NCBI GenBank assembly: GCA_963769935.1
Contig: CAVYNY010000022.1
Span: 384,001 to 448,000 of the forward strand
Reading direction: 5' to 3'
DNA length: 64,000 nt
Source of the DNA: an uncultured delta proteobacterium
GTDB lineage: Bacteria; Desulfobacterota; Desulfobacteria; Desulfobacterales; JAFDCJ01
The notes beneath the pieces were generated by a model. It searched no databases and was not told where the DNA came from. It saw only the letters and a list, made by a program, of their open reading frames with translations. Below, one piece after another: positions 162-58,424 of this stretch (position 1 is its first letter; each line of letters starts with the position of its first letter). A program made the translations under genes and the position numbers.

Positions 162-1130
162 TTACTTTAATGCCACTTTAAGGTACAGATCTCCCCGTTG
201 ACCCGTTGGATATTGTTTTCCCAGTCCTCTGAGCCGCAGCTTGTGACCCTCCTGAATCCCAGCCGGTACCGCCACCTTGAAGAGGCGTTTATGAAATCCC
301 CGCGGAATGTTGATCAATTTATAGGTACCTGCGGCAGCTTCATGCGCTGTGATGGTAATTGTGCCGTAAAGGTGCGGATCAGGTCCGGGGCCGACCGGCC
401 GAATAGCCTGAAGATGCGGGGATTTTCGGCGCGCGGTTACGCGACGAACTGCCTCGGGCGGCTCGGCGCCCGGTAGTGCCAGCAAAATCTTTAAGCATAA
501 AATGCCGAAGATAAACCCTCCGATATGCGCCCACCAGGCAACACCGCCTGCCTGGCCATGGCTGGCGGCTGCGCTGATAAATTGAAATAGGAACCATAAT
601 CCGAGAAAGAAATAGGCCGGGATCTCCAGAAAATAGGGAATAAAAAAAATGGGGATGAGAGTTAAGATTTTAGATCGCGGGTATAGAACAAAATAAGCGC
701 CCATCACACCTGCAATCGCACCGCTGGCACCGATGGTGGGGACATTGGAGTTCAGATTTAAAAGAAGATGGGAAATCCCCGAGGCGAATCCGCAGCAAAG
801 GTAAAATACCAGGTAACGCCCGTGACCCAGGCGGTCTTCAACGTTGTCGCCGAATATGTAAAGCGACCACATATTGCCGAGCAGATGCCAGAAACCGCCA
901 TGCAGAAACATAAAAGACAAGAAGGAAAAAACCTGGTACGGGTTGCTGAAATAGATGCTGATTTGAGGATTCGTATAACGAGCCGGCACCAGACCGAAGA
1001 TATAAACGAACCGGTCCCCCTCGGCTCCCAACGACAGTTGAAACAGGAAGACAAGCACATTGATGCCGATGAGGACGTTGTTGACAACCGGATAATTTCG
1101 GGCCTGGACCGTATCACGCAGAGGGATCAT
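162..1130 (-). CDS. Rhomboid intramembrane serine protease with C-terminal DnaJ_C-like domain
   Basis: MFLHGGFWHLLGNM, catalytic GASG and WWAHIGG; the tail VAVPAGIQEGHKLRLRGLG...GDLYLKV resembles the DnaJ C-terminal domain. Confidence 0.9.
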   Translation of the reverse strand: MIPLRDTVQARNYPVVNNVLIGINVLVFLFQLSLGAEGDRFVYIFGLVPARYTNPQISIYFSNPYQVFSFLSFMFLHGGFWHLLGNMWSLYIFGDNVEDRLGHGRYLVFYLCCGFASGISHLLLNLNSNVPTIGASGAIAGVMGAYFVLYPRSKILTLIPIFFIPYFLEIPAYFFLGLWFLFQFISAAASHGQAGGVAWWAHIGGFIFGILCLKILLALPGAEPPEAVRRVTARRKSPHLQAIRPVGPGPDPHLYGTITITAHEAAAGTYKLINIPRGFHKRLFKVAVPAGIQEGHKLRLRGLGKQYPTGQRGDLYLKVALK

Positions 1131-1477
1131 AGTTCGGGTTTCGCGTTACGGGTTAGAGTTACGAGTTACGAGGTGCGGGTTGCAGGTTACGCGTTACAGG
1201 CGATAAAGGCATAGCGCAGAAGGCAAAGCGCATAGCGTGAAAAAAAAATATTAGTGAATCCCTGATCGTTCAGAACTTGAAAATTTGCAGAGAAATGAAA
1301 ATAAAAGCAAATCATCAATACGTGTTCCGTGCGCCTTATACCCAATGCCTTGCGCCTTTTTCTTTTATCCTACCAGCTATCACCCATGAGCTATCAAGCG
1401 GCGCGTCGGCGCCCGCACCCCGCAACACGCACCGCGCAACTCGAACCCCGCACCGCGTAGCCCGCACCCCGCATCAT
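1131..1477. repeat. Nested inverted arrays of degenerate heptamer repeats filling the valS-rhomboid intergenic region
   Basis: GTTACGA/GGTGCGG-type units at ~1131-1200 and complementary CCCGCAC-type units at ~1411-1472; inner GGCATAGCG units (~1208-1238) face TGCGCC/TGCC units (~1330-1357). Confidence 0.75.
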
Positions 1478-4137
1478 GCCTGCGCTGCCTTTATGCGGTC
1501 AAGGTTGAGTTGAAGTTTTTGCTGCTTTTCCAGCAAGGCGCTTTGTTTCTCCTTCACTTTGTCAATCACATCGGCCGGTGCCTTGCTCAGAAAACCTTGA
1601 TTTGCCAGTTTTTTGTCCACCGCTGTCAGTTCGGTTTTCAATTTGTTGATTTCCTTGGCCAGGCGTTGGGTTTCTTTGCCGAAGTCAATGATACCTTCCA
1701 GGTCGACAAAAATCGAAGCATTGTTTACCACTGCGGTGGCGGATGACCTCGGTCTTCGGCCGGAGTTTTGAACCGTGAGCGAATCCAGCCGGGCAAGATT
1801 GAGGAGCAGGTCGCGTTGACGGTCAATTACTTCCCGGGTAGAGGTGTCCTCTGATACAATCAAGACCCGCAAGGATAGAGACGGAGCAATGTTCATCTCG
1901 CCCCGTACATTCCGGATGCCCGTAATTACACTCATCAGGATCCCCATTTCAGATTCAGCTTCCCGGTACTGATAGGCTGCGGCATTCTCGGTGGAAAACT
2001 CGGGATAGCCGGCTTTCATAATTGAACCGCTGGTACCGGGCATATGGTGCCAGATTTCTTCGGTAACAAAGGGGATAAATGGATGCAGCAGCACCAAAGT
2101 ATCCCGCAACACCCGCCACAGCACCGACTGGGCTGCTTCCTTGGCTGCCGGTCCCTGTTTATCGTAAAGGGCCGGTTTGACGGCTTCAAGGTACCAGTCA
2201 CAGAATTCATGCCATACAAAATTATATAACACTCCGGCCGCTTCATTGAAGCGATAACCGTCCAATGCATTGGCCACTTCGGTTGTCGTCCATGCCAGGC
2301 GGGATAGAATCCATCTGTCAGGCAGCGAAAGATTGCGAGCATTCAGCGCTTCATATCCTTGCTGCAGGTGCAACATCGCAAAACGGGATGCATTCCACAA
2401 TTTGTTAATAAAATGCCGATAGCCTTCAACCCGTTTTTCCGACATTTTGATATCCCGCCCCTGGGCGGCAAACGCCGCCAGGGTGTATCGGAAGGCATCC
2501 GTGCCGTAGCGGTCGATGACGTTCAACGGATCGATCACATTGCCCTTGGACTTGCTCATCTTCTTGCCGTCTTCGTCCCGCACCAGAGCGTGAACATACA
2601 CATCTTTGAAGGGCACGTCATGCATGAAATGGATACCCATCATCATCATGCGGGCCACCCAGAAAAATAAAATATCAAAACCGGTGACCAGCACGGATGT
2701 GGGATAAAATGTTTTTAAAAGAGGTGTTTCGTCCGGCCATCCCATGGTAGAAAAGGGCCAGAGGGCCGAGCTGAACCAGGTGTCCAGAACATCGGTTTCC
2801 TGCACAAGTTTTGTCGAGTTGCACCCCGGACATGTCCGGGGCGCTTCCATTGATACTGCAATCTCACTGCATTCATCGCAGGTCCAGGCCGGTATCTGAT
2901 GCCCCCACCAGATCTGCCGGGATACACACCAGTCCCGAATGTTGTTCATCCATTCATAATACGTATTGTTCCACATTGCCGGTATGATTTTTGTCTTACC
3001 GCTTTGGACTGCGGCGATAGCCTTTTCTGCCAGGGGTTTGGTCCGTACGAACCATTGTTTGGAAAGATTCGGTTCGACCACCGTTTTGCAGCGGTAGCAG
3101 TGGCCCACGCTGTGGCGATAGGGCACGACCTTAACCAGCAGTCCTTCAGTTTCGAGTTCTTTGACCACGGCCCGGCGGCATTCCAACCGATCCATTCCTT
3201 CAAACCGGCCGGCCTCGGCGGCCATATCGCCGTCGTCACTGATGACTTTTACACTGGGCAGGTGATGGCGGGCTCCGATTTCAAAGTCATTCGGATCGTG
3301 GGCCGGGGTAATCTTCAAACCGCCGGTTCCAAAGGACCTGTCGACGTAGCTGTCTCTAATAATAGGAATTTCCCTCATCATCAGCGGCAGAATGACCTTA
3401 TCGGATTTAATGTTCCGATAGCGCTCATCGTCAGGGTGGACGGCCACTGCCGTATCACCCAGCATCGTTTCGGGTCGGGTGGTTGCCACCACGATGCCGC
3501 CGGACCCGTCCGGAAACGGATAGCGGATATGGTATAGGTGGCCGTCAATTTCTTCGTGTTCAACTTCAAGGTCCGCCAGTGCCGTGTGACAGCGGTGGCA
3601 CCAGTTGATTATGTAGTTGCCCCGATAAATGAGACCTTCCTCATAAAGCTGCACGAAAACTTTTCGCACAGCCTTCGACAGCCCTTCATCCATGGTAAAG
3701 CGTTCGCGTGCCCAGTCACAGGAGGCCCCCAAACGTTTTAGCTGATTGATAATGGCGCTGCCGTATTTTTCGCGCCACTGCCAGACGGCCTCGATGAATT
3801 TCTCCCGTCCCAGCTGATGACGGTCCGTGCCCTCTTCAGCCAGTTTTTTTTCGACCACGTTTTGAGTGGCGATCCCGGCATGGTCGGTACCCGGCATCCA
3901 TAAAACATTATCTCCCCGCAGCCGTCGGTAGCGGCATAAAATATCCTGCATGGTAATATTCAGAGCATGCCCCATATGGAGCACACCGGTGACATTCGGC
4001 GGTGGGATGACAATCGAATAGCTTGCCTGGGTACTTTGCTCCTGGGCGGCAAACAGCTGCTCCTTTTCCCAGAATTCATACCAGCGCTTTTCGACCTCGT
4101 GCGGTTCGTAACCCGTGTCAAATTGGTTGAGACTCAT
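1474..4137 (-). CDS. valS: Valine--tRNA ligase
   Basis: PPPNVTGVLHMGH (HIGH), KMSKS, DWCVSRQIWWGH, C-terminal coiled coil; 887 aa. Confidence 0.99.
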   Translation of the reverse strand: MSLNQFDTGYEPHEVEKRWYEFWEKEQLFAAQEQSTQASYSIVIPPPNVTGVLHMGHALNITMQDILCRYRRLRGDNVLWMPGTDHAGIATQNVVEKKLAEEGTDRHQLGREKFIEAVWQWREKYGSAIINQLKRLGASCDWARERFTMDEGLSKAVRKVFVQLYEEGLIYRGNYIINWCHRCHTALADLEVEHEEIDGHLYHIRYPFPDGSGGIVVATTRPETMLGDTAVAVHPDDERYRNIKSDKVILPLMMREIPIIRDSYVDRSFGTGGLKITPAHDPNDFEIGARHHLPSVKVISDDGDMAAEAGRFEGMDRLECRRAVVKELETEGLLVKVVPYRHSVGHCYRCKTVVEPNLSKQWFVRTKPLAEKAIAAVQSGKTKIIPAMWNNTYYEWMNNIRDWCVSRQIWWGHQIPAWTCDECSEIAVSMEAPRTCPGCNSTKLVQETDVLDTWFSSALWPFSTMGWPDETPLLKTFYPTSVLVTGFDILFFWVARMMMMGIHFMHDVPFKDVYVHALVRDEDGKKMSKSKGNVIDPLNVIDRYGTDAFRYTLAAFAAQGRDIKMSEKRVEGYRHFINKLWNASRFAMLHLQQGYEALNARNLSLPDRWILSRLAWTTTEVANALDGYRFNEAAGVLYNFVWHEFCDWYLEAVKPALYDKQGPAAKEAAQSVLWRVLRDTLVLLHPFIPFVTEEIWHHMPGTSGSIMKAGYPEFSTENAAAYQYREAESEMGILMSVITGIRNVRGEMNIAPSLSLRVLIVSEDTSTREVIDRQRDLLLNLARLDSLTVQNSGRRPRSSATAVVNNASIFVDLEGIIDFGKETQRLAKEINKLKTELTAVDKKLANQGFLSKAPADVIDKVKEKQSALLEKQQKLQLNLDRIKAAQA

Positions 4138-4262
4138 TTCAATATTGCTCCTTGCTTTTCATTTTTTCAGCAATCGAGGTTTTACGCATCTCCATCCGCC
4201 GAAATAAAAAAGGGGATTATAAATTAATCCCCATTAATTTTCCAGCGGTTTTTACGATTGTT

Positions 4263-6210
4263 TTAGTAATTATCGTCGGGCGGGCTGCTGTCCATTAGAA
4301 CACCCTTCAAGCGTTCGATCTCTTTGGCTACCGTTTTTTCAATTACATCGTAAATGATTTTTTCTATCCGGCCGGAAAATTTTTCATTGATGACGCGTTC
4401 AATGGCCTTATCAATTTGTCCGGGTGAAAACGCGGCTAATTCTTCAGAATGCGGCTCTACCGCTAAATTTTCCTGGATGGCATTCGTGCCTGCAGGGAAA
4501 TCTTCAGGCGGCGATATCGCCTCTGGTTCATCGATTGGATCTTCTGATAAAAATGCATCCAGTCGATCGACTTGTCGGGCGATTGCACCGGGATCAAAAT
4601 TAAAATCGAACGCCTCATCTTCCGAGTCCGGCACTGCAGATTGGGCCGCTAATTCAGGAGCCGGGGCATCTTCGGTATTCTCAGCTTCTTCTTTTGTCAA
4701 CCGCCATTCATCGAGCGCTGCATTGTTGAAATCAGTTTCGGCAGCCTCAGGTTCCGGCTTTTCATCATCATCATCATCATCATTCTTCTTCTTCTGATTC
4801 TTCACTGAAAAAGTCGTCGAGTTCGGTGTATTCGCTTTTTTCGTCCGATTCACCGATTCCTATGATAGGTTCCTCTGCGGTCTGCCGGTCCTCTTCTACC
4901 TCGATCAGCTCGAGAAAGTCATCTTCCTCTTCATCAACAGTATCCAAAATACCGGCCTGTTCCAACATTTTATCGCTATCGTTCGGATAATGCTGATCAA
5001 ATTCGGTAATTTCGACAATGTCATCTCCCGTTTCGGCGTCAAAATCCCATGAACCATCCAGGGGGATTACCTCATCGTCATCTTCCAGTTCGGTTGCGTC
5101 CTCAAGATCAACAAGCAAGCCATTATCATTTTCAAAGTCCAGAGGTTCGTCCAGAGATTCGTTGTCTTCCAGCGCCACGATTTGCTCATCTTCCTGCGGG
5201 TTGGCATCCAGGGCGAGGAGGTTGGCGTCATCATTTGGTTCAAATTCGAATTCTTCGGTCGGTTTGAAACGTTCTCTTGCGTCATCTGAACCTATCGACT
5301 GCTCCACGGTTCGGGCGATGATATCATCGCCGCTGTCGGTCTCTTCTCCAATCTTGGTGGGTTCACTATTCGCCTCATCCTCGTCTTCAAAATCAAGTTC
5401 AGTGAGGGCTGCCAGATCCGGCAAGTCCTCGATATCGTCATTTCCCAGTGCATCGGCGTCCAGCATGGCGATGGTTGGCGGCGTTCCGCCCGCGCCTTCA
5501 TTCACATCTGGGTTGTCATTGTGCCGGTGGGAGTCAAATTCCAAGTATTCCGCCGGTTCTTCGGTTTGATCGCGGCGGCCGGATCTATCAGTTTCACCCA
5601 GAACCATGCTGACAAAATCCGGTTGATCTTCGCTGCGTTCATCATCCAAGGCAATCAACTCGTCCCCGTCTTCATCCGTTTCATATTCAAGTTCAATTTC
5701 CTCTTCGAGGTCAAACAAATCCTCATCATCTTCGACACCTGCTGTGTCAGCGTCCGTTACTTCAGCCAAACTTTCGTCTACCGCATCCGGCTCATTATCC
5801 AGTATAATGACATCATCCTCCGAGGCTTTGAATTCGAATCCGTCATCTTTTTTGTAGGGTTCGTCTTCGTCGGATCCCAAAGAATCATTTATGGCCGATG
5901 CAATCAGCTCGTCCTCCCCCATGCCGGTTTCATCATCTGCAAACTGATCGTCCAGTTCTAAGATTACATCTTCTTTCAAGATACCGGGTTTTGAAGCTGC
6001 TTCCCAAACGGTGAAAGCCTCATTGTCATCATCACTGTCGATTTTATGAGCTTCATCGCTCAGGCCGTCGTTTAATTCTATTATGCCGTCATTCTCTTCA
6101 GTCTCAATAATGACCTCATCGGTGAGCTCGATTATGGCATCATCGTCCGATGAGTCGGTCTTGACCGAATTCTGCCGGGGATCTTTTTTATCGATCATAG
6201 TTGTCACCAA
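4263..6210 (-). CDS. Highly acidic disordered protein with helical C-terminus (PopZ/RomR-C-like); one gene split by an apparent 1-nt frameshift at ~4783
   Basis: ORF 4780..6210 and the part of ORF 4263..4853 after the junction share D/E-rich composition; removing one A from GAAGAAGAAGAATGATGAT fuses them into about 648 aa; directly upstream of valS. Confidence 0.7.
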
Positions 6211-6431: not shown

Positions 6432-7196
6432 ATGAGACACTTTTACGTCGATCCGGCAGCCGTGACCAAACCCCTGGTTATACTTAAAGGTTCGGAAGCC
6501 CATCACATCAAAAACGTCTTGCGTTTGAAACGCGAGGACCCCATCAAGCTGATTGACGGAACCGGAAATGAATATGAGGCGGTTATCAAAGTCTTGGATA
6601 CCGAAAAAGTTGAGCTCGAAATCCGGCACGAGTTTCACCCCTCTGCAACTGCTGGTGCACGGATTTTGGTGGCCCAGGCCTTTTTAAAAGAAAAAAAGAT
6701 GGACGATCTGGTGCGCAAACTCAGCGAACTGGGCATGGCCGGTTGGGTCCCCTTTTTTTCGCAGCGCTCCATTGCCAGGCCGGCTAAAGACCGTCTGGTC
6801 GGCCGAACCAACAGATGGAAGCGAATTGCCGCCGAGGCTGTCAAACAATGCCGTCGCAGCGACCTGCTGCAAATTTATGAGGCACTCAGCTTCAAAGAGG
6901 TGCTGCAATTCAGCCAAACCTGTGATTTGAAAATTGTTTTCTGGGAAAATGAGACCGTTCCTCTGAACCGGGACCCGGGATCGAAAGGGCAGGTGCCCTT
7001 AAAAAAAATTATGCTGATGTTGGGACCCGAAGGTGGCTTTACCGAGCAGGAGATCGAATTGGCTCGGCAAGGTGGATTTGCAGTCGCCGCGCTGGGGCCC
7101 CGCATTTTGCGGGCTGAAACCGCCACCCTGGCCGCCTCGACTTTGATCCAATATCTGTATGGTGATATGGGGCTGGGGGGGGACCAGCCGGATTAG
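6432..7196 (+). CDS. rsmE: 16S rRNA (uracil1498-N3)-methyltransferase
   Basis: HHIKNVLRL, LGPEGGFT, LGPRILRAETA. Confidence 0.97.
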   Translation: MRHFYVDPAAVTKPLVILKGSEAHHIKNVLRLKREDPIKLIDGTGNEYEAVIKVLDTEKVELEIRHEFHPSATAGARILVAQAFLKEKKMDDLVRKLSELGMAGWVPFFSQRSIARPAKDRLVGRTNRWKRIAAEAVKQCRRSDLLQIYEALSFKEVLQFSQTCDLKIVFWENETVPLNRDPGSKGQVPLKKIMLMLGPEGGFTEQEIELARQGGFAVAALGPRILRAETATLAASTLIQYLYGDMGLGGDQPD

Positions 7197-7655: not shown

Positions 7656-7961
7656 ATGAGTGAAGTGCGAATTAGTATACCAAAACATAAAATTGCTGAT
7701 TTTTGTAAACAAAATCAGGTCCGCAGATTATCTTTGTTTGGTTCGATACTTAGGGAAGACTTTGGGCCGGACAGTGATATTGATATCCTGGTGGAGTTCG
7801 AGCCCGGCACCCGGATGGGACTCATCCGGCTATCCGGATTGGAGATTGAGCTTGGTAAAATAATCGGACGCAAGGTCGATTTGAATACCCCTGGGTTGCT
7901 GAGTAAATATTTTCGCGACCAGATTCTTGCTGAGGCAGATGTGCAATATGACGCAGCATAA
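7656..7961 (+). CDS. Minimal nucleotidyltransferase (MntA-type antitoxin)
   Basis: FGS-x10-DID motif (FGSILREDFGPDSDIDILVEF), 101 aa, overlaps a HEPN gene; TTGACA-N17-TACCAT upstream. Confidence 0.9.
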   Translation: MSEVRISIPKHKIADFCKQNQVRRLSLFGSILREDFGPDSDIDILVEFEPGTRMGLIRLSGLEIELGKIIGRKVDLNTPGLLSKYFRDQILAEADVQYDAA

Positions 7962-8375: not shown

Positions 8376-9305
8376 TCAGCTCTCCGCTAATCTCTTCAAC
8401 GAATACATCCCATCTAACCCCTTGATCGGTTTGGGTTTTTTCTCATGTTTTGAGAAAAATAGATGTTTAAACCGCTGGTAATTTTTAGCCACAAATACCT
8501 TTGATCCAATAATTCCCGAATCTGTAAAATAGCGGGTGCGGTATCTGAACCGATCGCTTTTGCTGAGTTGAAATTCTCTGCGGCGCTCCTTTGCCAGCAC
8601 CTTGTTTTCAATAACCTTCGCGTTGCCTTTCTCTGGCTGGTTCAGCGCTCCTGCCTCATAGACATACCGGCGGTATCTTCTGATGCGCTCTTTTTTGCTT
8701 TTGACATTAAATTCCTTTAAACCAAAATCTGTAGATAAAAAGCTGTCCCGGTTGGTGGTCTGGATATGGTAGCCCAGTGAATTCCAGCGGTATTGTTCCG
8801 GGAGCTCCACTATCCCGGCACGCAGGGGATTCAGATCGATATAGGCCAGGCAGTTGATCAGCGTCTCGCCGTTTTCAACGATCACGCTCTTAAAACGATC
8901 GCCCCAAAAGTAACCCCGCCGGTGGTGGCGCCGGTTGTAAAACCGGGCAAAGTTAACTTTGATTTCTCGCATAAATTCAGAAAGACTGGATAGTTTTTCC
9001 CGCAATGATGACACCAGGCCTTCTGCGAAAATGCGCTCATCCCCGTAAAAATCCACATAGCGATTTAGAATATCCTTGTCTGTAAACTTGTGCTCAGGAA
9101 ACATCCTCACCAAGATATGGAAATGATTTCCCATCAAACAGAATCCTAATATCTCGACTAAATAAAGGGTAGCGTAACGCCTGATCAGATCCAGCATAAA
9201 ATCTTTTTCGACGTTGCCCAATGGAAAGCCGTCCAGGGCGGTTCTGGACATAACGTGATAAACGGTGCTTTGATCATCAATGATCATTCGTTGCGTTCTG
9301 GGCAT
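8376..9305 (-). mobile_element. REP-associated tyrosine transposase (RAYT)/Y1 HUH transposase
   Basis: YHVMSR, MGNHFH (HUH), FWGDRFKS, YIDLNPLRAG, YRWNS; probable start MPRTQR at 9305. Confidence 0.85.
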
Positions 9306-9506
9306 GATATGCTCCTTTTCTTTTTTATTGATTGTGACTTCCATTGCACATGAATTGATATGTGTCAAGCATAAAGTACCTGTCCCCTATTCTCTTTCTG
9401 CCGGCCAAGTGGTTTCAGATGACCGGTCAATGGACAGAAAGATAAAGATAAGAAGTTGCTTTTCCGAAGCGGAAGAATCGGAAAAGGTTAATTGTGTGCC
9501 GGAATC

Positions 9507-15573: not shown

Positions 15574-16898
15574 TTACACACAGATGAAGGATTCGGTGGG
15601 CGGGCTATTGGTTCGCGGGGGCGGTCTGTGTTTAACATCCCATAAGTCCAGGTGCGTGAGGATTTTTTTGACGAGCTGCTCTTCCTCGATAAATGAAATT
15701 ATTTTCATAGACCCCAGGCACTTAGAACACACCAATGGATTAATCCCGCCGGGGCGGGATAGATTTTCTGTATCAAACGAGCCCAGCTTTTACGGAATTC
15801 TTTAGATGAAAGCTCAGATTCAATCAACGCCGGGACTACATCATCGGTGCTGGCTTTTTTGCGTAAGCCGCGCGATTTATTGGAATAAAATCCATAATAT
15901 CTGACCATTTGCTCGCCACGGTTCGGGATATGGGCGGTCAGCTGTGCGAGCCAATCCAGAGCATCAAACGTTTTACTGGTCTTCCCATCCTTTGACTCAT
16001 AAATGACTTTTGCCACGCCGTTGGCTGATTCACCAGCCGCAATATATGTCATGCGCTCTTGGGAAAAGGAGGCTCGAATAATATAGCGCGCCAGGTTTTC
16101 CAGGCCGTCTTCATTGTGCGGCCAAATGGCTTTACCACAGTACACGTGGAATCCGCTGTGACGCCAATTCATCATATTCTCGATGATGACATCCGTGATT
16201 TTGCCTTCGGCTTTGAGCATTTTGAACACTTCATAGCGAAACAGCTTTTCAAGCTCACCGGTATCAGGTGATGGGCATACCATGAAGGCGTTATCGTTGT
16301 AAAAGCAGCCATCGGTGGCCAGCACATGTAAATGCGGATGAAAATTTTGAAAATCACCAAACGACTGAACGGCGACTGCAGCACCGGCTTTGGCATCATC
16401 ATAGGCTATCGCTTGGGTTAAATACAAGTTCAGCACTTTCCAGGCGCAACGGCTCAGTTTTGTGAGCAGTTTACGGTCAAACATGAAATAGATCCGCAAT
16501 CTTTTTGGAATGCTGAATACCCATTGCCGGTGCGGCACATATTTTAGCACTTCTGTGCATAACCATTCGCCGAATTCCACCACCCGTTTCTGATGGCATG
16601 ATGGACAAAAATGGCGACGCTTGCATGAAAATGCCAACAAATATTCATGGCCGCAATCTTCACATTTAACGCGCGCAAAGCCAAAATGTAAATCCCCACA
16701 ATCCATATAGCGCTGAATGACATCCGTCACATAAGGCCGCCAAAAGCCAAAGCGGCGCTGATAACGATCATCCCAGACAGCTTCCAACTGTTCAAAATGA
16801 TCTTCGACGCAGCGGTAATAGGCGCTTGCCTTGGGATTGCGCGGTTGATAAACATCAAAATCAATTGTAGTAGGGCACGCGTTTAACATATTGACCAA
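15574..16898 (-). mobile_element. IS91/ISCR-like rolling-circle transposase with frameshifted C-terminus
   Basis: Zn domain CEDCGH...FSCKRRHFCPSC, HUH FHPHLH, LARYIIR, VRYYGFYSN; tail NPLVCSKC...KILTHLDLW continues in another frame to TAA at 15574. Confidence 0.88.
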
Positions 16899-37998: not shown

Positions 37999-40900
37999 AT
38001 GAAATTCACCGATCTCTTTATCCGCCGTCCCGTCATCGCCCTGGTAATTAGCTTCTTGATTATCATTGCCGGGCTGCAGGCGGTGCGCACGCTGAATGTC
38101 CGCCAGTATCCCCGCAGCGAGAACGCGGTGGTCACCGTCACGACCATTTATGTCGGCGCAAACGCTGAGCTCATCCGCGGATTCATTACCACACCCTTAG
38201 AGCGTGCCATTGCGGCCGCCGACGGCATCGATTATATCCAGTCGCAGAGTTCCCAGGGAGTATCGACCATCAGTGCCCGCCTGAAGCTTAATTACGACCC
38301 GATCAAGGCGTTGTCGGAAATCAGTTCCAAAGTAGACCAGATCCGTGGTGATCTACCCCCGGATGCCGAAGTGCCGACTATCAACGTCGAATCGGCGGAC
38401 AGCCAGTTCGCCTCCGCTTATCTTAGTTTCACCTCCGACGTTCTCCTGCAGAACCAGATTACGGATTATCTTGTCCGAAGTGTTCAGCCGCGCCTGTCGG
38501 CGATTGAAGGCGTTCAGCGGGCCGACATTTTAGGCGGCCGCACGTTTGCGATGCGCATCTGGCTCAAACCCGATCGCATGGCCGCATTCAACATCAGTCC
38601 GGCGCAGGTTCGCCGGGCGTTGGCGGCCAATAATTTCCTGGCCGCCGTCGGTCGGACAAAAGGTTCGCTCGTCCAGATCAATCTGACGGCCAATACCGAT
38701 CTGAGTTCCGTTCAGGAGTTCAAACGTCTCGTCATTCGCGAGCAGAATGGTGCCGTCGTGCGGCTGGAAGACATCGCCGACGTGGTGCTGGGTGCCGAGG
38801 ACTATGATACGGAGGTACGCTTCTCAGGCCAGACCGCCGTATTCATGGGCATTTGGCCCCTGCCCAACGCCAACTCCATTGACGTGATCAACCGCGTGCG
38901 GGTCGAAATGGAATCCATTCAGAAACAGCTGCCCAGCGGCATCCAGGGCCGTATCGCTTACGACGCTACCGACTACATTACCAATGCCATCCACGAGGTC
39001 ATCAAAACCCTTGGCGAAACGCTGCTGATTGTCGTGGTTATCATTTTTCTTTTTTTAGGCTCTCTGCGATCGGCGTTCATCCCGGTGGTGGCCATCCCCC
39101 TTTCTCTCATTGGGGCCGTCTTTCTGATGCAGGTTTTCGGCTTCACCATCAACCTGCTGACCCTGTTGGCCATCGTGCTCTCCGTCGGTTTGGTGGTCGA
39201 CGATGCCATCGTGGTGGTTGAAAATGTCCAACGGCACCTGAGCGACGGGCAGTCGCCGCTTGATGCGGCCTTGCTGGGGGCCCGCGAGCTGGTCGGTCCC
39301 ATAATTGCCATGACGATCACTCTGGCGGCCGTCTACGCCCCCATTGGTTTACAGGGTGGCCTCACCGGGTCCCTATTTCGCGAGTTTGCCTTTACTCTGG
39401 CCGGTGCGGTCATGATTTCCGGGGTCGTTGCCCTGACCCTGTCACCCATGATGTCGTCCAAGCTGCTGAAACCGGGGATCGAGGACCACGGTTTTGCCGG
39501 CAAGATAGCGCGTGATTTCAAGCGCTTCAGAGCTTTCTACGGCCGCCTGCTTGACATCACCCTCAAGAGCCGGCCGGCTGTTTACCTGGTGTGGATCACG
39601 GTGAGTCTGCTCACCATCCCGATGTTCATCATGTCGCCCAAGGAACTGGCGCCGACTGAAGATGAGGGCGTCATTTTCGGCATTATGGAGGCGTCGGCCA
39701 ATTCTACCATCGACCAGACCAGCCGCTATGCCGCGGCAGTCAACCAAGCGTATCTCAATGTGCCGGAGACCCGGTTTACTTTCCAGCTGACGCTTCCGAC
39801 ATCCGGCTTTTCCGGTATGGTCGTCAAGCCCTGGGAAACACGCAAGCGTACCATTTTCCAGATTCTACCCGAGGTGCAGCAGAGGCTGCATCACATTCCG
39901 GGCATCCGGATAAACCCGGTGCTGCCACCGGCGCTGCCGGGAGGGGGCCAGTTCCCGGTGGAGTTCATTCTCGCTTCGACGGCGGAGGAAGACCAGATTT
40001 TGCAGTTTGCCAAGCAGATTCAATACAAAGCGCAGCAGAGCGGTTTGTTTGCCTTTCCCCCGATCATCGATGTTAAAATCGACCAGCCCCAGGCAGAGAT
40101 CGTCATCGATCGCGACAGAGTGGCCGACCTGGGCCTCGACCTTCAGCGGGTCGGAGCCGACATCGGGTCGATGGTCGGCGGCAATTACGTCAACCGCTTC
40201 AATATCGCCGGCCGCAGTTACAAGGTTATACCGCAGATCAAGCGCATCGACCGTCTCAATCCGGCGCAGCTCGAAAATATCTACATCACCGGGCCGCACG
40301 ACCAACTCGTCCCGCTCAGCACGATCGCCACGATCCGAAACTCCACCGTACCGCGTTCGTTAAACCGCTTCCAGCAGCTTAATGCGGTCAAAATCAGCGG
40401 CGTGGCCCTCAGGCCGCTTGATGAAGCCCTGCGCTTTCTGGAAGGATGAGGCCGCCAAGATTCTGCCCGAGGGCTATGTCCTCGATTACACCGGTGAGTC
40501 GCGCCAACTCCGGGTCGAGGGCAACCAGTTCATTTCGACCTTCGCGCTGGCCATTATCTTAATCTTTCTGGTCCTTGCGGTTCAGTTCAACAGCTTCCGC
40601 GATCCCTTCGTCATCCTGGGCGGTTCAGTGCCGCTGGCAATGTTCGGTGCACTGGCCTTCACCTTTCTGAAAATGCCAAACCCGAATGTTGCCTTCTGGA
40701 CCCAGGGGTGGACCACCACGTTAAATATTTACTCCCAGGTAGGTCTGGTAACCCTTGTCGGCCTGGTGTCGAAAAACGGCATCCTGATAGTTGAATTTGC
40801 CAACAAACTTCAGGCCCAGGGGCGGTCCAAACGCGAAGCCGTGCATGAAGCCTCCCTGACCCGCCTGCGCCCGATTATCATGACGACTGCAGCCACCATC

Positions 40901-41149
40901 GCCGGTCACTTCCCTTTGACGCTGGTTTCCGGCGCCGGCGCTGCTGCCCGCAACTCGATCGGTCTGGTGCTGGTGGGCGGCATGGCCGTTGGAACCTTTT
41001 TCACCCTTTTTGTCATCCCCTCGATTTACATGCTCGTCGCCCGCGACCATGCCAAAGACCTCGCCCGCGAAAAAGCGTCCTCGACGGTCGCCGACGGCGC
41101 CGGCAACCGGGTTGTGAAACCGCAACGCATCGTCCCAGATTCCAATTGA
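37999..41149 (+). CDS. RND efflux permease (AcrB/MexW-like) with 1-nt frameshift at ~40444
   Basis: FIRRP, GLVVDDAIVVVEN, then KNGILIVEFA and RLRPIIMT in the next frame. Confidence 0.9.
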
Positions 41150-53885: not shown

Positions 53886-54887
53886 ATGAAAAAATTGCTT
53901 AACCAAGCCCAAGACGTGGTGAAGGAATCCCTGGCCGGCTTTGCGGCGGCCTACGGCGACCTGGTCAGGGTTCATTTCGCTCCGAATTACATCGTGCGGG
54001 CGGATGCGCCGCTAAAAGGCAAGGTCGGGATTGTCTCCGGGGGCGGCAGCGGGCACGAGCCGATGCACGGCGGCTACGTCGGAAAAGGAATGCTGGATGC
54101 CGCCTGTCCGGGGGAGGTATTTACCTCGCCGACCCCGGATCAAATGGAAGCGGCCACCAAAGCCGTTGATGGCGGGGCCGGTGTGCTGCACATCGTAAAA
54201 AACTACACCGGAGATGTCATGAATTTTGAGATGGCCGCTGAATTGTGCCAGGCCGAAGGCATCCAGGTGGAAAGTGTCGTCATCAACGATGATGTTGCCG
54301 TACAGGACAGCCTTTATACTGCCGGACGACGCGGGGTCGGTACCACGGTGCTGGCAGAAAAAATATGCGGTGCGGCAGCTGAAAAAGGACTTGATTTAAA
54401 AACCGTTGCCGGCCTGTGCCGCAGGGTCAATGACAACGGCCGTTCGATGGGCATGGCCCTGACTTCCTGCACCGTGCCCTTGGCGGGCAGGCCGACTTTC
54501 AAGATTGATGACGGGCAGATGGAGATCGGAATCGGCATCCATGGGGAGCCGGGCCGGGAAAGAGTACCCCTGGCAGGTGCGCGGGAGATCATTGAGACCC
54601 TGGCCGGTGCGATAATTGCCGACCTGCCTTTTAAAAGCGGTGATGCGGTCATTGCCATGGTAAACGGAATGGGCGCAACACCATTAATGGAACTCTATCT
54701 GGCCTACAATGAGCTTGCCGGCATTTGCCGGCGGAATAAAATTTCAATTGTCCGACGGCTGGTGGGAAATTTTATCACCTCGCTGGAAATGGCCGGCTGT
54801 TCAATTACCCTTCTCAAAGTCGATGATGAAATACTTAAACTTTGGGATGAACCGGTTCTCACGCCGGGGCTGCGCTGGGGGATTTGA
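53886..54887 (+). CDS. dhaK: Dihydroxyacetone kinase subunit K
   Basis: [22 protein letters not shown]. Confidence 0.97.
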
Positions 54888-54891
54888 TGCG

Positions 54892-55521
54892 ATGATCAAG
54901 CGTGCCGATGTGCTGGCCTGGATTAACGAACTGCACAACGTATTTATCCAAAACAGGGCATATCTGACCGATCTGGATGCAGCCATCGGAGACGCCGATC
55001 ACGGCATCAATCTGGAACGCGGGTTCAATGCCGTCGCTGCGGAACTGGAGCAAAACGATCCGCCGGACGTCGCCGGCATCCTGAAGACGGTAGCCATGAC
55101 ATTGATCAAGACAGTGGGCGGTGCCTCCGGGCCGCTCTACGGCACATTTTTTTTACGGGCGGCCGCCGTGTGTGCGGGCAAGGACGACCTGGCCGCGGCT
55201 GACATCATCGCCCTTTTCAGCGCAGGGCTTGAGGGTGTTGTGCAAAGAGGCAAAACCGGGTTAAACGACAAGACCATGGTGGATGCGTTGACACCGGCCA
55301 TAGCAGCGATGAAAACGGCTTGCGACGCAGGGGCCGATTTAAACGAGATTCTGCATCAGGGGGCGGCTGCGGCCCGCTCCGGAATGCAGCGTACCATTGA
55401 GCTGCAGGCCCGCAAGGGACGTGCCAGTTACCTGGGTGTTCGCAGCATCGGGCATCAGGATCCCGGCGCCACTTCAACTTTTCTGCTGCTGAAGGCCGCC
55501 GCTGATATCTGGGGCACGTAG
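54892..55521 (+). CDS. dhaL: Dihydroxyacetone kinase subunit L
   Basis: LDAAIGDADHG, GGASGPLYG, KGRASYLG, DPGA. Confidence 0.96.
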   Translation: MIKRADVLAWINELHNVFIQNRAYLTDLDAAIGDADHGINLERGFNAVAAELEQNDPPDVAGILKTVAMTLIKTVGGASGPLYGTFFLRAAAVCAGKDDLAAADIIALFSAGLEGVVQRGKTGLNDKTMVDALTPAIAAMKTACDAGADLNEILHQGAAAARSGMQRTIELQARKGRASYLGVRSIGHQDPGATSTFLLLKAAADIWGT

Positions 55522-55588
55522 CAGGGTTCCGTCATTTAAGGAGATAAATGACTAATTTTGCGAAAATTACCCGCTTAACAATAATCAT

Positions 55589-55806
55589 GAAAATTCCAAG
55601 CTCCAAATACCAAATCTCAAACAAATCCCAATGACCCAAATTCAAATATCGAAACAAAGGATCCTTCTGCCATCGTGCCAAACGGCATCATCACCGGCTC
55701 GCCAGATTTTACGTCTTGGCGCGCTGCAATGTTGGCGAATGTTTTGGTCATTGAATATTGAGATTTGAGATTTATTTGTAATTTGGCGTTTGAGATTTGA
55801 GATTTT
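55589..55806. repeat. Long imperfect inverted repeat built from heptamers (CAAATCT / AGATTTG type)
   Basis: Left arm ~55589-55658 complementary to right arm ~55741-55806. Confidence 0.8.
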
Positions 55807-55889
55807 ATTGTATTGTAAAACTTTACAAATGCAGCTGGTTTAGAATTTACTTTGACGTTACCCTGGGGAACGTAGGAGTAGTCTTCGCC

Positions 55890-58424
55890 ATGGTTGGATT
55901 GGTCATTGTCTCCCACAGCAACGCCTTATCTCAGGCGCTGGTCGGCCTGGTACGCCAGGTAGCCACCGGGCATCTGCCGCTATGCGGGGTGGGCGGAGTC
56001 GGGGTTGATAGACAGGCGTTCGGCACCGATGCCGTCAATATTGTCGAAGCGATCGAATCGGTGTTCAGCCCGGACGGCGTTGTGGTGCTGGTGGATCTCG
56101 GCAGTGCGATCTTAAGCGCTGAAACGGCGCTGGAATTGCTGCCTGAGGAGATGCGGCCCCATATCCGGATTTGCGGAGCGCCCATTGTCGAGGGTGCTGT
56201 CGCGGCCGGGGTTCAAATCAGCCTGGGCGGCAGCCTGGAGGCTGTTTGTCATGAGGCCGGCCGGGCGCTTGTTCCCAAGATCAATCAAATGTCCGGATCC
56301 GATGAAATATTCGTCGCGCCCGGGGCGCGAGATCCAGCCCAGCCATTGCCGGAGGATTGGCAAACAATCCAATTAACCGTTAACACTCCCCACGGTTTGC
56401 ATGCCCGGCCGGCGGCCCGTTTTGTCCAGACGGCTGCGGTTTTCGATGCCCAAATTCGGATTAAGAAGCTGGAATCCTCTGCGGAACCGGTGCCGGCTGC
56501 AAGCTTCAACAGCATTGCCACCCTGGGCATCAACCGGGGAGACCGGATTGTTGTTTTTGCCAGGGGAAGGCAGGCCCCAGAAGCCCTGGCCGCCATCAAA
56601 ACGCTGGTGGACGATCAACTGCCGAAGTTGACTGAAGAATTCATCCCGGTGCCGTCCGCCGGCGCCGCCGCACCGCAAGGCCGGGAGGCTATCGCAGCAG
56701 TTGCCGTTTCCGCTGGCATTGCTGCCGGCCCGCTGTTTCATTATCGGCTTTATTTGCCGCCGATTTCCCGCCATTCAACGAAAAATTGCCTGCAGGAATG
56801 GAAGCATTTGCTGCAGGCACGGGATCAGGCGAGCCGGTCAATCCTGAATCGCCGCCATTCAGTGGAGTCCAGGCTTGGCGAAGCCCAAGCGGCTATATTC
56901 GATGCCCATCTTTTGATTATCCAAGACCCCCAGCTTTTGGATGCAGCACGCAGCCGCATTTTTGAAAAAAAGCAGAACGCCGCGCTGGCCTGGCAGGAAA
57001 GCGTGCAGGAAATTGCCGCGAACTATCGTGCGCTGGACGATGCGTATCTCAGGCAGCGGGCGGCTGATGTCATTGACGCCGGCAACCAGGTTTTATTGAA
57101 TTTTCTCGGTCAACCCGCCCCAAAGGTGGTCGACCTGCCGCAGCCGGTGATTCTGGTGGCCGAGGAACTCACTCCTACGGATACGGCCGCGCTGGATACC
57201 CGGAAGGTGCTTGGCATCGCAACTGTTGCCGGCGGGCCGACTTCGCACGCCGCTATTTTGGCCCGAGCTCTTGGAATCCCGGCCATTGCCGGGGTGGATC
57301 CCTCCATTTTAGGCCTGCCGGATGACACTTCCCTGGTGTTGGACGGCTTCAGCGGCCGGCTGTGGATTCAGCCCGGGCAAAAGGTTGCCGAGGATCTCAA
57401 AAAACGCCGAACGCGCTGGCTGCAGAAACGCCGCCAACTTCTTAAAATCGGCCGTCAACCGGCTGAAACCGATGACGGCCGCCGGTTTACCATTACCGCC
57501 AACCTGGGCAATTTTTTTGAAGCCCAATCTGCCCTCGAAAACGGAGCGGAGGGCGTGGGACTGCTGCGGACCGAATTTCTCTATCTGACGCGCAGCCAGC
57601 CGCCGTCGGAAGCCGAGCAGGTGGATAGTTTGCAGCAGATCGGCCGGACAATCGGACAAAAGCCGATTTGCGTGCGCACCCTGGATGTCGGGGGTGACAA
57701 ATCCATTCCTTATCTTCGCCTGCCTGCAGAAGCAAATCCCTATTTGGGACTGCGTGCCGTTCGCCTGTCGCTGCGGTATCCGGAGCTGTTCCGCGGACAG
57801 CTGCGCGCTATTTTGCAAGCCGGTGCGGACTTCGATCTGCGGGTCATGTTTCCAATGATCAGCACAACCGAGGAGGTCGATCGGGTTCTGGAAATTCTGG
57901 ATGCGGTTCATCGTGAACTGGCAGCTGAAAATTGCGTTCATCGTTGGCCGATTTTAACGGGTATCATGATTGAGACGCCGGCCGCGGCCCTGATGATTTC
58001 AGCATTTGTCAAGCGGCTGGATTTTTTCAGCATCGGTACCAACGACCTGACCCAATACTCCCTGGCGGCTGAACGCGGGAATTCGAATCTGACAGACTAT
58101 GCGGACGCACTGCACCCGGCAATTTTGCAGCAGATCAGAAAGGTGGTTGATGAAGCCCATCGTTACGGGAAGCACGTAGCGGTGTGCGGTGAGTTGGCGG
58201 CGGATTTGACGGCCGTGCCTGCCCTTGTGGGGCTGGGCGTCGATGAGCTCAGCCTGGCGCCGCATGCCATCCCTGAAGTAAAGGCGCTCATTTGTCGACT
58301 GAACTATGCCAAGACCCTTGATCTGGTAGAAAAGATGCTGACCACGGACAGCGCCCGCAGTGCGCGCAATCTGGCCGAAAAATTCTTAAAAAAACTAAGC
58401 GTCGCGCGAGATTTCGTCTGGTAG
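55890..58424 (+). CDS. dhaM: DhaM(EIIA)-HPr-Enzyme I multiphosphoryl transfer protein
   Basis: VIVSH, DLGSA; GLHARPA; TSHAAI, GLLRTEF, SIGTNDLTQY, VCGE. Confidence 0.93.
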   Translation: MVGLVIVSHSNALSQALVGLVRQVATGHLPLCGVGGVGVDRQAFGTDAVNIVEAIESVFSPDGVVVLVDLGSAILSAETALELLPEEMRPHIRICGAPIVEGAVAAGVQISLGGSLEAVCHEAGRALVPKINQMSGSDEIFVAPGARDPAQPLPEDWQTIQLTVNTPHGLHARPAARFVQTAAVFDAQIRIKKLESSAEPVPAASFNSIATLGINRGDRIVVFARGRQAPEALAAIKTLVDDQLPKLTEEFIPVPSAGAAAPQGREAIAAVAVSAGIAAGPLFHYRLYLPPISRHSTKNCLQEWKHLLQARDQASRSILNRRHSVESRLGEAQAAIFDAHLLIIQDPQLLDAARSRIFEKKQNAALAWQESVQEIAANYRALDDAYLRQRAADVIDAGNQVLLNFLGQPAPKVVDLPQPVILVAEELTPTDTAALDTRKVLGIATVAGGPTSHAAILARALGIPAIAGVDPSILGLPDDTSLVLDGFSGRLWIQPGQKVAEDLKKRRTRWLQKRRQLLKIGRQPAETDDGRRFTITANLGNFFEAQSALENGAEGVGLLRTEFLYLTRSQPPSEAEQVDSLQQIGRTIGQKPICVRTLDVGGDKSIPYLRLPAEANPYLGLRAVRLSLRYPELFRGQLRAILQAGADFDLRVMFPMISTTEEVDRVLEILDAVHRELAAENCVHRWPILTGIMIETPAAALMISAFVKRLDFFSIGTNDLTQYSLAAERGNSNLTDYADALHPAILQQIRKVVDEAHRYGKHVAVCGELAADLTAVPALVGLGVDELSLAPHAIPEVKALICRLNYAKTLDLVEKMLTTDSARSARNLAEKFLKKLSVARDFVW

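Follow-up and report, generated by a model that had tools for sequence, protein, structure and literature searches.

A RomR- and PopZ-related protein with no receiver domain, encoded before valS in a Desulfobacterales genome: a likely cell-pole landmark

The genes of two bacterial pole hubs are described as neighbours of the valyl-tRNA synthetase gene: according to the available text of the reports, Myxococcus xanthus romR adjoins it (PMC2034494), and popZ precedes valS in Caulobacter and Agrobacterium (PMC5686542). What kind of protein, then, does an uncultured Desulfobacterales bacterium encode directly before its valS, and what could it do for the cell? The window, the whole stretch of 64,000 nucleotides that was analysed, carries at this place a gene for a very acidic putative scaffold, and we read the locus as follows:

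1474 to 4137, minus strand: valS, valyl-tRNA synthetase, the conserved downstream neighbour of the scaffold gene.
4212 to 4232, minus strand: terminator-like hairpin and T run between the scaffold gene and valS (consensus match only).
4263 to 6198, minus strand: scaffold gene, about 643 aa, split by the assembly into 6198-4780 and 4853-4263.
4296 to 4418, minus strand: conserved C-terminal amphipathic helix, homologous by profile comparisons to RomR-C and to H3H4 of PopZ.
4419 to 6111, minus strand: acidic linker, predicted to be disordered, with 12 further degenerate ΦΦxΦ motifs.
4754 to 4803, no strand assigned: triplet-repeat run (poly-E/poly-D codons) in which the frameshift lies; the read contigs lack 4 or 13 bases at this place.
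6112 to 6141, minus strand: first acidic-hydrophobic motif, residues 20-29, matching the de novo PopZ linker motif (12.5 bits, p 0.004).
6432 to 7196, plus strand: rsmE, divergent upstream neighbour; of 30 related loci, 11 include it and most of the others end short of it.

Other genes of the window were noted in passing. Directly downstream of valS lies a fusion of a Rhomboid protease with a DnaJ C-terminal-like domain (162-1130, minus strand); transposase genes of IS200-like (Y1) and IS91-like (Y2) type occupy 8376-9368 and 15705-16898 (minus strand), and a gene for a small MNT-type nucleotidyltransferase 7656-7961. At 53886-58424 (plus strand) there are dihydroxyacetone kinase genes accompanied by a multiphosphoryl transfer fusion, EIIA-HPr-EI, of 875 aa.

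An earlier note on this DNA had described one protein of about 650 aa. In the assembly, the region is open in two frames of the minus strand that overlap, 6210-4780 (476 aa) and 4853-4263 (196 aa), and which that note had joined without saying so; the longer one stops at a TGA among repeated triplets, (GAA)n/(TGA)n, in a stretch of Glu/Asp codons, and the C-terminal helix sits in the second. The join itself is very probably right. Twenty sequencing runs contain the stretch, contigs of six were examined, and three bridge the repeat at 4754-4803: X1, possibly the source sample, is shorter by 4 bases, X4 and X7 by 13 each, so that all three, coming from two studies, differ by -1 modulo 3, evidence that comes from length and not from the letters inside the repeat. 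The intact homolog P0016 (632 aa) gives an 81% match to the N half and an 80% match to the C half, and both halves lie in one protein chain in 11 of 11 close homologs tested (627-723 aa). Because the bridging contigs restore the frame by length and the homologs are intact, we read the split as an assembly indel, very probably in a true gene of about 643 aa, with ATG 6198, which matches the homologs, as the likely start.

A real frameshift, which would make this copy a pseudogene or leave a truncated protein without the helix, seems to us very improbable. It is the assembly itself that contains the stop, triplet runs are prone to slippage, and the contigs speak through their length with the letters inside the repeat unread; but all three of them restore the frame, the close homologs are uninterrupted, and, of the 299 ORFs examined on contig C22 because they have a paralog, eight further pairs proved to be split genes. 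Programmed frameshifting was considered and rejected, since none of the intact relatives requires it. Metatranscriptome contigs span most of the scaffold gene, which we do not count as proof of expression. Elsewhere in the window, a gene for an RND transporter of the AcrB/AcrD/AcrF family (37999-41149, plus strand) is present in two frames (816 + 255 aa), probably also through an assembly indel.

The protein is indeed very acidic: D and E make up 35% of it, the net charge is -188, and among the 6,701 ORFs of at least 200 aa in the genome the N-half frame ranks first in acidity. Pfam gave no family match for the scaffold protein, and, in agreement with the earlier reading, no receiver domain (PF00072) was matched in either half or in full-length homologs, while RomR has one. 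A single-sequence AlphaFold model of P0016, of low confidence (mean pLDDT 41) and too weak to serve for fold comparison, is coil with one long end helix. All seven motifs quoted earlier and the C-terminal block are present, across the two frames. The statement that at least ten acidic-hydrophobic motifs recur in the protein needs dividing: the pattern ΦΦxΦ (Φ = I, L, V or F) does occur 13 times against 4.5 expected in shuffles (maximum 12 in 5000), and four other spacings showed no enrichment in the same test, but a strong PopZ-type motif is confined to the first copy, the others being degenerate. This first motif (residues 20-29) belongs to the best-conserved blocks of the linker.

For comparison with PopZ, regular-expression motifs were dropped as circular, having been written with both sets in view, and a motif was learned de novo from PopZ linkers alone, with the consensus DDVLELTDVV. 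At p<=0.02 it is found in 60 of 107 family proteins, many of which are fragments, in 16 of 17 other receiver-less valS neighbours, and in 6 of 30 RomR linkers versus 1 of 77 acidic control ORFs. Our analysis points to a conserved motif in the PopZ linker itself, of which the literature search returned no description. The great length of the protein, which the earlier note had treated as special, does not distinguish it: open frames of the relatives range from 171 to 838 aa, so that length varies in the family and was rejected as a defining trait, and the number of strong motifs does not follow length (rho 0.15, p 0.13). What stays constant is the N-terminal IIELT-type motif and the end helix. 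In three receiver-less valS neighbours (L078, L082 and L083) the IIELT motif of the linker is replaced by another short acidic motif, helical and repeated many times.

The end helix is the part through which the protein can be related to known ones. In hhalign comparisons the family helix matched RomR-C with a probability of 93.7 (score 36, the best alignment having two 4-residue gaps) and PopZ-C with 89 (score 31, over 41 columns with no gap); 60 column shuffles reached at most 16, reversed PopZ scored 16 and reversed RomR-C 23.7, so amphipathic periodicity accounts for part of the RomR-C match. The RomR-C profile, derived from RomR-like genes of this phylum and not from M. xanthus RomR, ranks the scaffold gene first among 76,324 six-frame ORFs of its genome (G000), where it is the sole match in the search over the order; in 41 relatives the same search found neither a strong RomR-C match elsewhere nor a canonical RomR. 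A profile of the RomR-type helix pulls out Geobacter response regulators, as is to be expected from the available text of PMC3441718. With the PopZ profile the gene ranks only seventh in its own genome, and a direct DUF2497 search of that genome did not find it. Pfam and NCBIfam scores stay under their cut-offs: of 26 members, 3 match DUF2497, with E 0.0035 at best, but the scaffold protein does not; it is above cut-off for neither DUF2497 nor NF052660, and its DUF2497 match in the atlas is weak (0.88, rank 4). Sequence searches of the PDB returned no solved relative, the top matches being weak ones to designed coiled coils, and a homotrimer prediction for the helix (score 0.11 against a mark of 0.42) was counted neither for nor against.

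Blind scans covered 81 alphaproteobacterial genomes, 69 of them with a DUF2497 match. A profile built from the order only matched popZ in 14 of the 69 popZ-bearing genomes (14 of 40 matches overall, 13 of 20 at E<=0.11), the unpublished genome G269, which gave one non-popZ match with it, being counted in the denominators. A wider PopZ-free profile of 41 sequences reached popZ in 51 of the 69, that is in 51 of 68 matches and in 28 of 29 at E<=0.01; with the profile reversed, 0 of 30 PopZ proteins rose above background versus 17 of 30 forward. Judged by these profile comparisons, the helix is homologous to RomR-C and, remotely, to H3H4 of PopZ, and the similarity that had been claimed for the C-terminus holds. 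It might still be argued that any acidic amphipathic end helix would resemble PopZ and RomR by convergence: the homologous region is short, about 40 residues, the reversed RomR-C profile retains a partial score, and the weak best PDB matches are designed coiled coils. Against this, the blind scans pick popZ, in one register, and the evidence of an independent motif and of a shared gene neighbour agrees, so that convergence is largely refuted already and we regard it as the most improbable of the readings considered here.

The neighbourhood is conserved as well. By profile matches the family spans Desulfobacterales, to which most named homologs belong: searched with the last 75 residues, 36 of 41 related genomes gave a match at E<=1, which in 31 of them was at E<=3e-5, and a family profile search returned 961 cluster representatives at E<=0.001. 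Conserved valS synteny, an earlier claim, was confirmed, valS lying directly downstream in all 30 family loci fetched and popZ within 1.5 kb of valS in 23 of 30 popZ loci, in line with the accounts of romR and popZ cited above. Across the phylum valS was detected in 117 of 121 genomes, and upstream DNA was taken for 100 loci, omitting the genome of this DNA, three order members and 13 loci mostly near a contig end. A RomR-type gene (REC-linker-helix) precedes valS at 36 of these, a receiver-less one at 17 (one with a degenerate REC-like start), a truncated one at 1, making 54, and neither at 46, a classification made with profiles built from those same sequences. A tblastn search of the helix against plasmids gave chance matches only. 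Three receiver-less valS neighbours (L081, L093 and L059) have the end helix in 3-4 tandem copies and are a natural version of higher-valency PopZ constructs.

What may such a protein do? The end helix, the short linker motif and the position before valS are common to all three kinds of protein, and for this reason we suggest a likely pole scaffold. As far as the available parts of the sources report, RomR-C alone trimerises, is needed for polar localisation and targets poles (PMC10329633, PMC3441718, PMC12719032), and PopZ H3H4 is a trimeric coiled coil (PMC12999525). By analogy with these relatives we predict that the C-terminal helix assembles into a homo-oligomeric coiled coil, probably a trimer, which would gather at the pole. 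Short hydrophobic motifs on the acidic arm, long and disordered, would then be on display for client proteins to dock on. Likely clients would be ParB/ParA, flagellar or pilus assembly factors and, in this order, MglA modules; the genome has ParB, FliF, PilT, DivIVA and MglA-like genes. Its chromosomal parB (G000:C22:450567-451058) is on the same contig, just past the window, about 60 kb from the scaffold gene.

Since no canonical RomR was found in the 41 relatives, the scaffold gene appears to hold the place of RomR, and it may be asked whether it also does RomR's job, without a receiver domain, as a dedicated part of the MglA/MglB motility-polarity switch. MglA-like genes occur in 40 of the 41 relatives, the genome itself has an mglB-mglA operon (three intact MglA-like genes and a broken one in all), and the profile score is nearer to RomR-C than to PopZ-C. 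However, the scaffold gene is retained with no MglA match in three members of the order (G029, G111 and G142), and such a match is missing in 10 of 17 phylum genomes with receiver-less forms versus 3 of 36 with REC forms, kin among them not being independent, although the ten span five families. (Pfam Robl_LC7 was dropped as a marker because it missed five genomes that do contain MglA.) The features for docking are missing too: according to the available text, RomX binds REC (10.1101/2024.02.20.581209) and MglC requires W394 (PMC12719032), and a protein with neither REC nor the RomR-C tryptophan would offer no RomX docking site and no MglC contact, so that it would mark poles and not switch them. 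We consider a dedicated role in the switch unlikely. As a separate observation, the mglB-mglA pair (L304, G000:C3:75663-82973) is bordered by genes for a 265-aa protein with repeats, for a zinc-ribbon/HAMP protein and for a response regulator.

Slightly less probable still, in our estimate, is that the helix is homologous and the function has drifted, the protein being a cytoplasmic acidic disordered chaperone, a cation buffer or a nucleic-acid mimic, perhaps linked to translation through valS. Its extreme net charge per residue (-0.34), a lasting linkage to valS in a neighbourhood free of polarity genes, and the loss of H1, Trp and Pro would fit such a change, but the two characterised homologs, equally linked to valS, are hubs of the pole, conservation of the PopZ motif and of the helix extends even to versions of about 100 aa, and a terminator-like site stands between the scaffold gene and valS. 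The missing docking features, together with the receiver-less genomes that have no MglA match, favour a general static landmark. We therefore propose, as a probable though by no means secure reading, that the scaffold is a receiver-less RomR/PopZ homolog serving as a static landmark of the cell pole, of the kind proposed, in the available text of PMC6428892, for the essential RomR of Bdellovibrio.

The suggestion that the protein may form condensates was the weakest element of the earlier reading. The available parts of PMC12999525 and PMC9512792 report that the PopZ linker inhibits condensation and that doubling it raises the saturation concentration; long acidic linkers thus oppose PopZ condensation, and for a linker more than four times longer condensate formation is not supported by analogy. 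By the same analogy its length and charge argue against both filaments and condensates, an effect which the hydrophobic motifs or divalent cations could offset.

From the same shared traits it would be logical to suggest that this unnamed receiver-less family likely bridges PopZ and RomR, so far described as unrelated: in the available text PopZ is called exclusive to Alphaproteobacteria (PMC9512792) and RomR-C not homologous to characterised domains (PMC3441718). Such a bridge makes homologs of the two best-studied Gram-negative pole hubs, and the way RomR-C finds the pole becomes testable by the logic of PopZ and by helix swaps. More tentatively, at somewhat short of an even chance, PopZ and RomR may be two branches of one ancient valS-linked family of pole scaffolds with a shared linker motif and trimer helix, in which RomR gained a receiver domain and PopZ gained H1, the receiver-less Desulfobacterota proteins being the link and perhaps resembling the ancestor; the DDVLELTDVV-type motif may then be a site, so far unrecognised, at which a conserved partner docks, and its amplification here to some dozen copies could provide the stickers of a polar condensate that depends on cations in sulfate reducers. 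The literature found, including the available text of 10.1101/2023.11.29.569176 and PMC3441718, holds no statement of PopZ-RomR homology or of a receiver-less family, and supplementary homolog tables may bear on this novelty. A pole organiser of sulfate-reducing bacteria did not appear there either, and the available literature on PopZ/RomR, Deltaproteobacteria and Desulfovibrio agrees with the earlier remark that this lineage has no characterised example; the scaffold is a candidate for that place.

By its sequence features the scaffold is a member of neither known family, having no receiver domain, no Trp/Pro of RomR-C and no PopZ H1. RomR of Myxococcus xanthus and Geobacter type consists, according to the available text of PMC3441718, of REC, a linker and RomR-C; common to it and the scaffold are the gene directly before valS, a variable disordered linker and a homologous Glu-rich C-terminal helix, and the scaffold takes the position that REC-bearing genes hold at 36 of 100 phylum valS loci. 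Unlike RomR, it has a D/E-rich linker with repeated hydrophobic motifs, its gene is retained in genomes with no MglA match, and column counts over 78 family members show neither a conserved Trp nor a conserved Pro in the helix, both of which are invariant in RomR-C. With PopZ of Alphaproteobacteria (Pfam DUF2497/PF10691, NCBIfam NF052660) it shares the valS linkage, a linker that is acidic and predicted to be disordered though not proline-rich, the DDVLELTDVV-type motif and a C-terminal helix that aligns gaplessly to H3H4. It differs from PopZ in having no recognisable H2 and no conserved Pro and Trp of H3H4, in scoring below the family cut-offs and, by a pattern test, in the client-binding helix H1, whose pattern is matched by 0 of 107 family proteins; its linker of about 580 aa with 5% Pro is also more than four times longer and more charged than that of PopZ (median 126 aa, 18% Pro). 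The RomR of Bdellovibrio bacteriovorus (PMC6428892, as described in its available text) gives a precedent for a non-oscillating, essential polar hub with decayed receiver function; it keeps most of REC, unlike the scaffold, to which it is likened by description and not by sequence.
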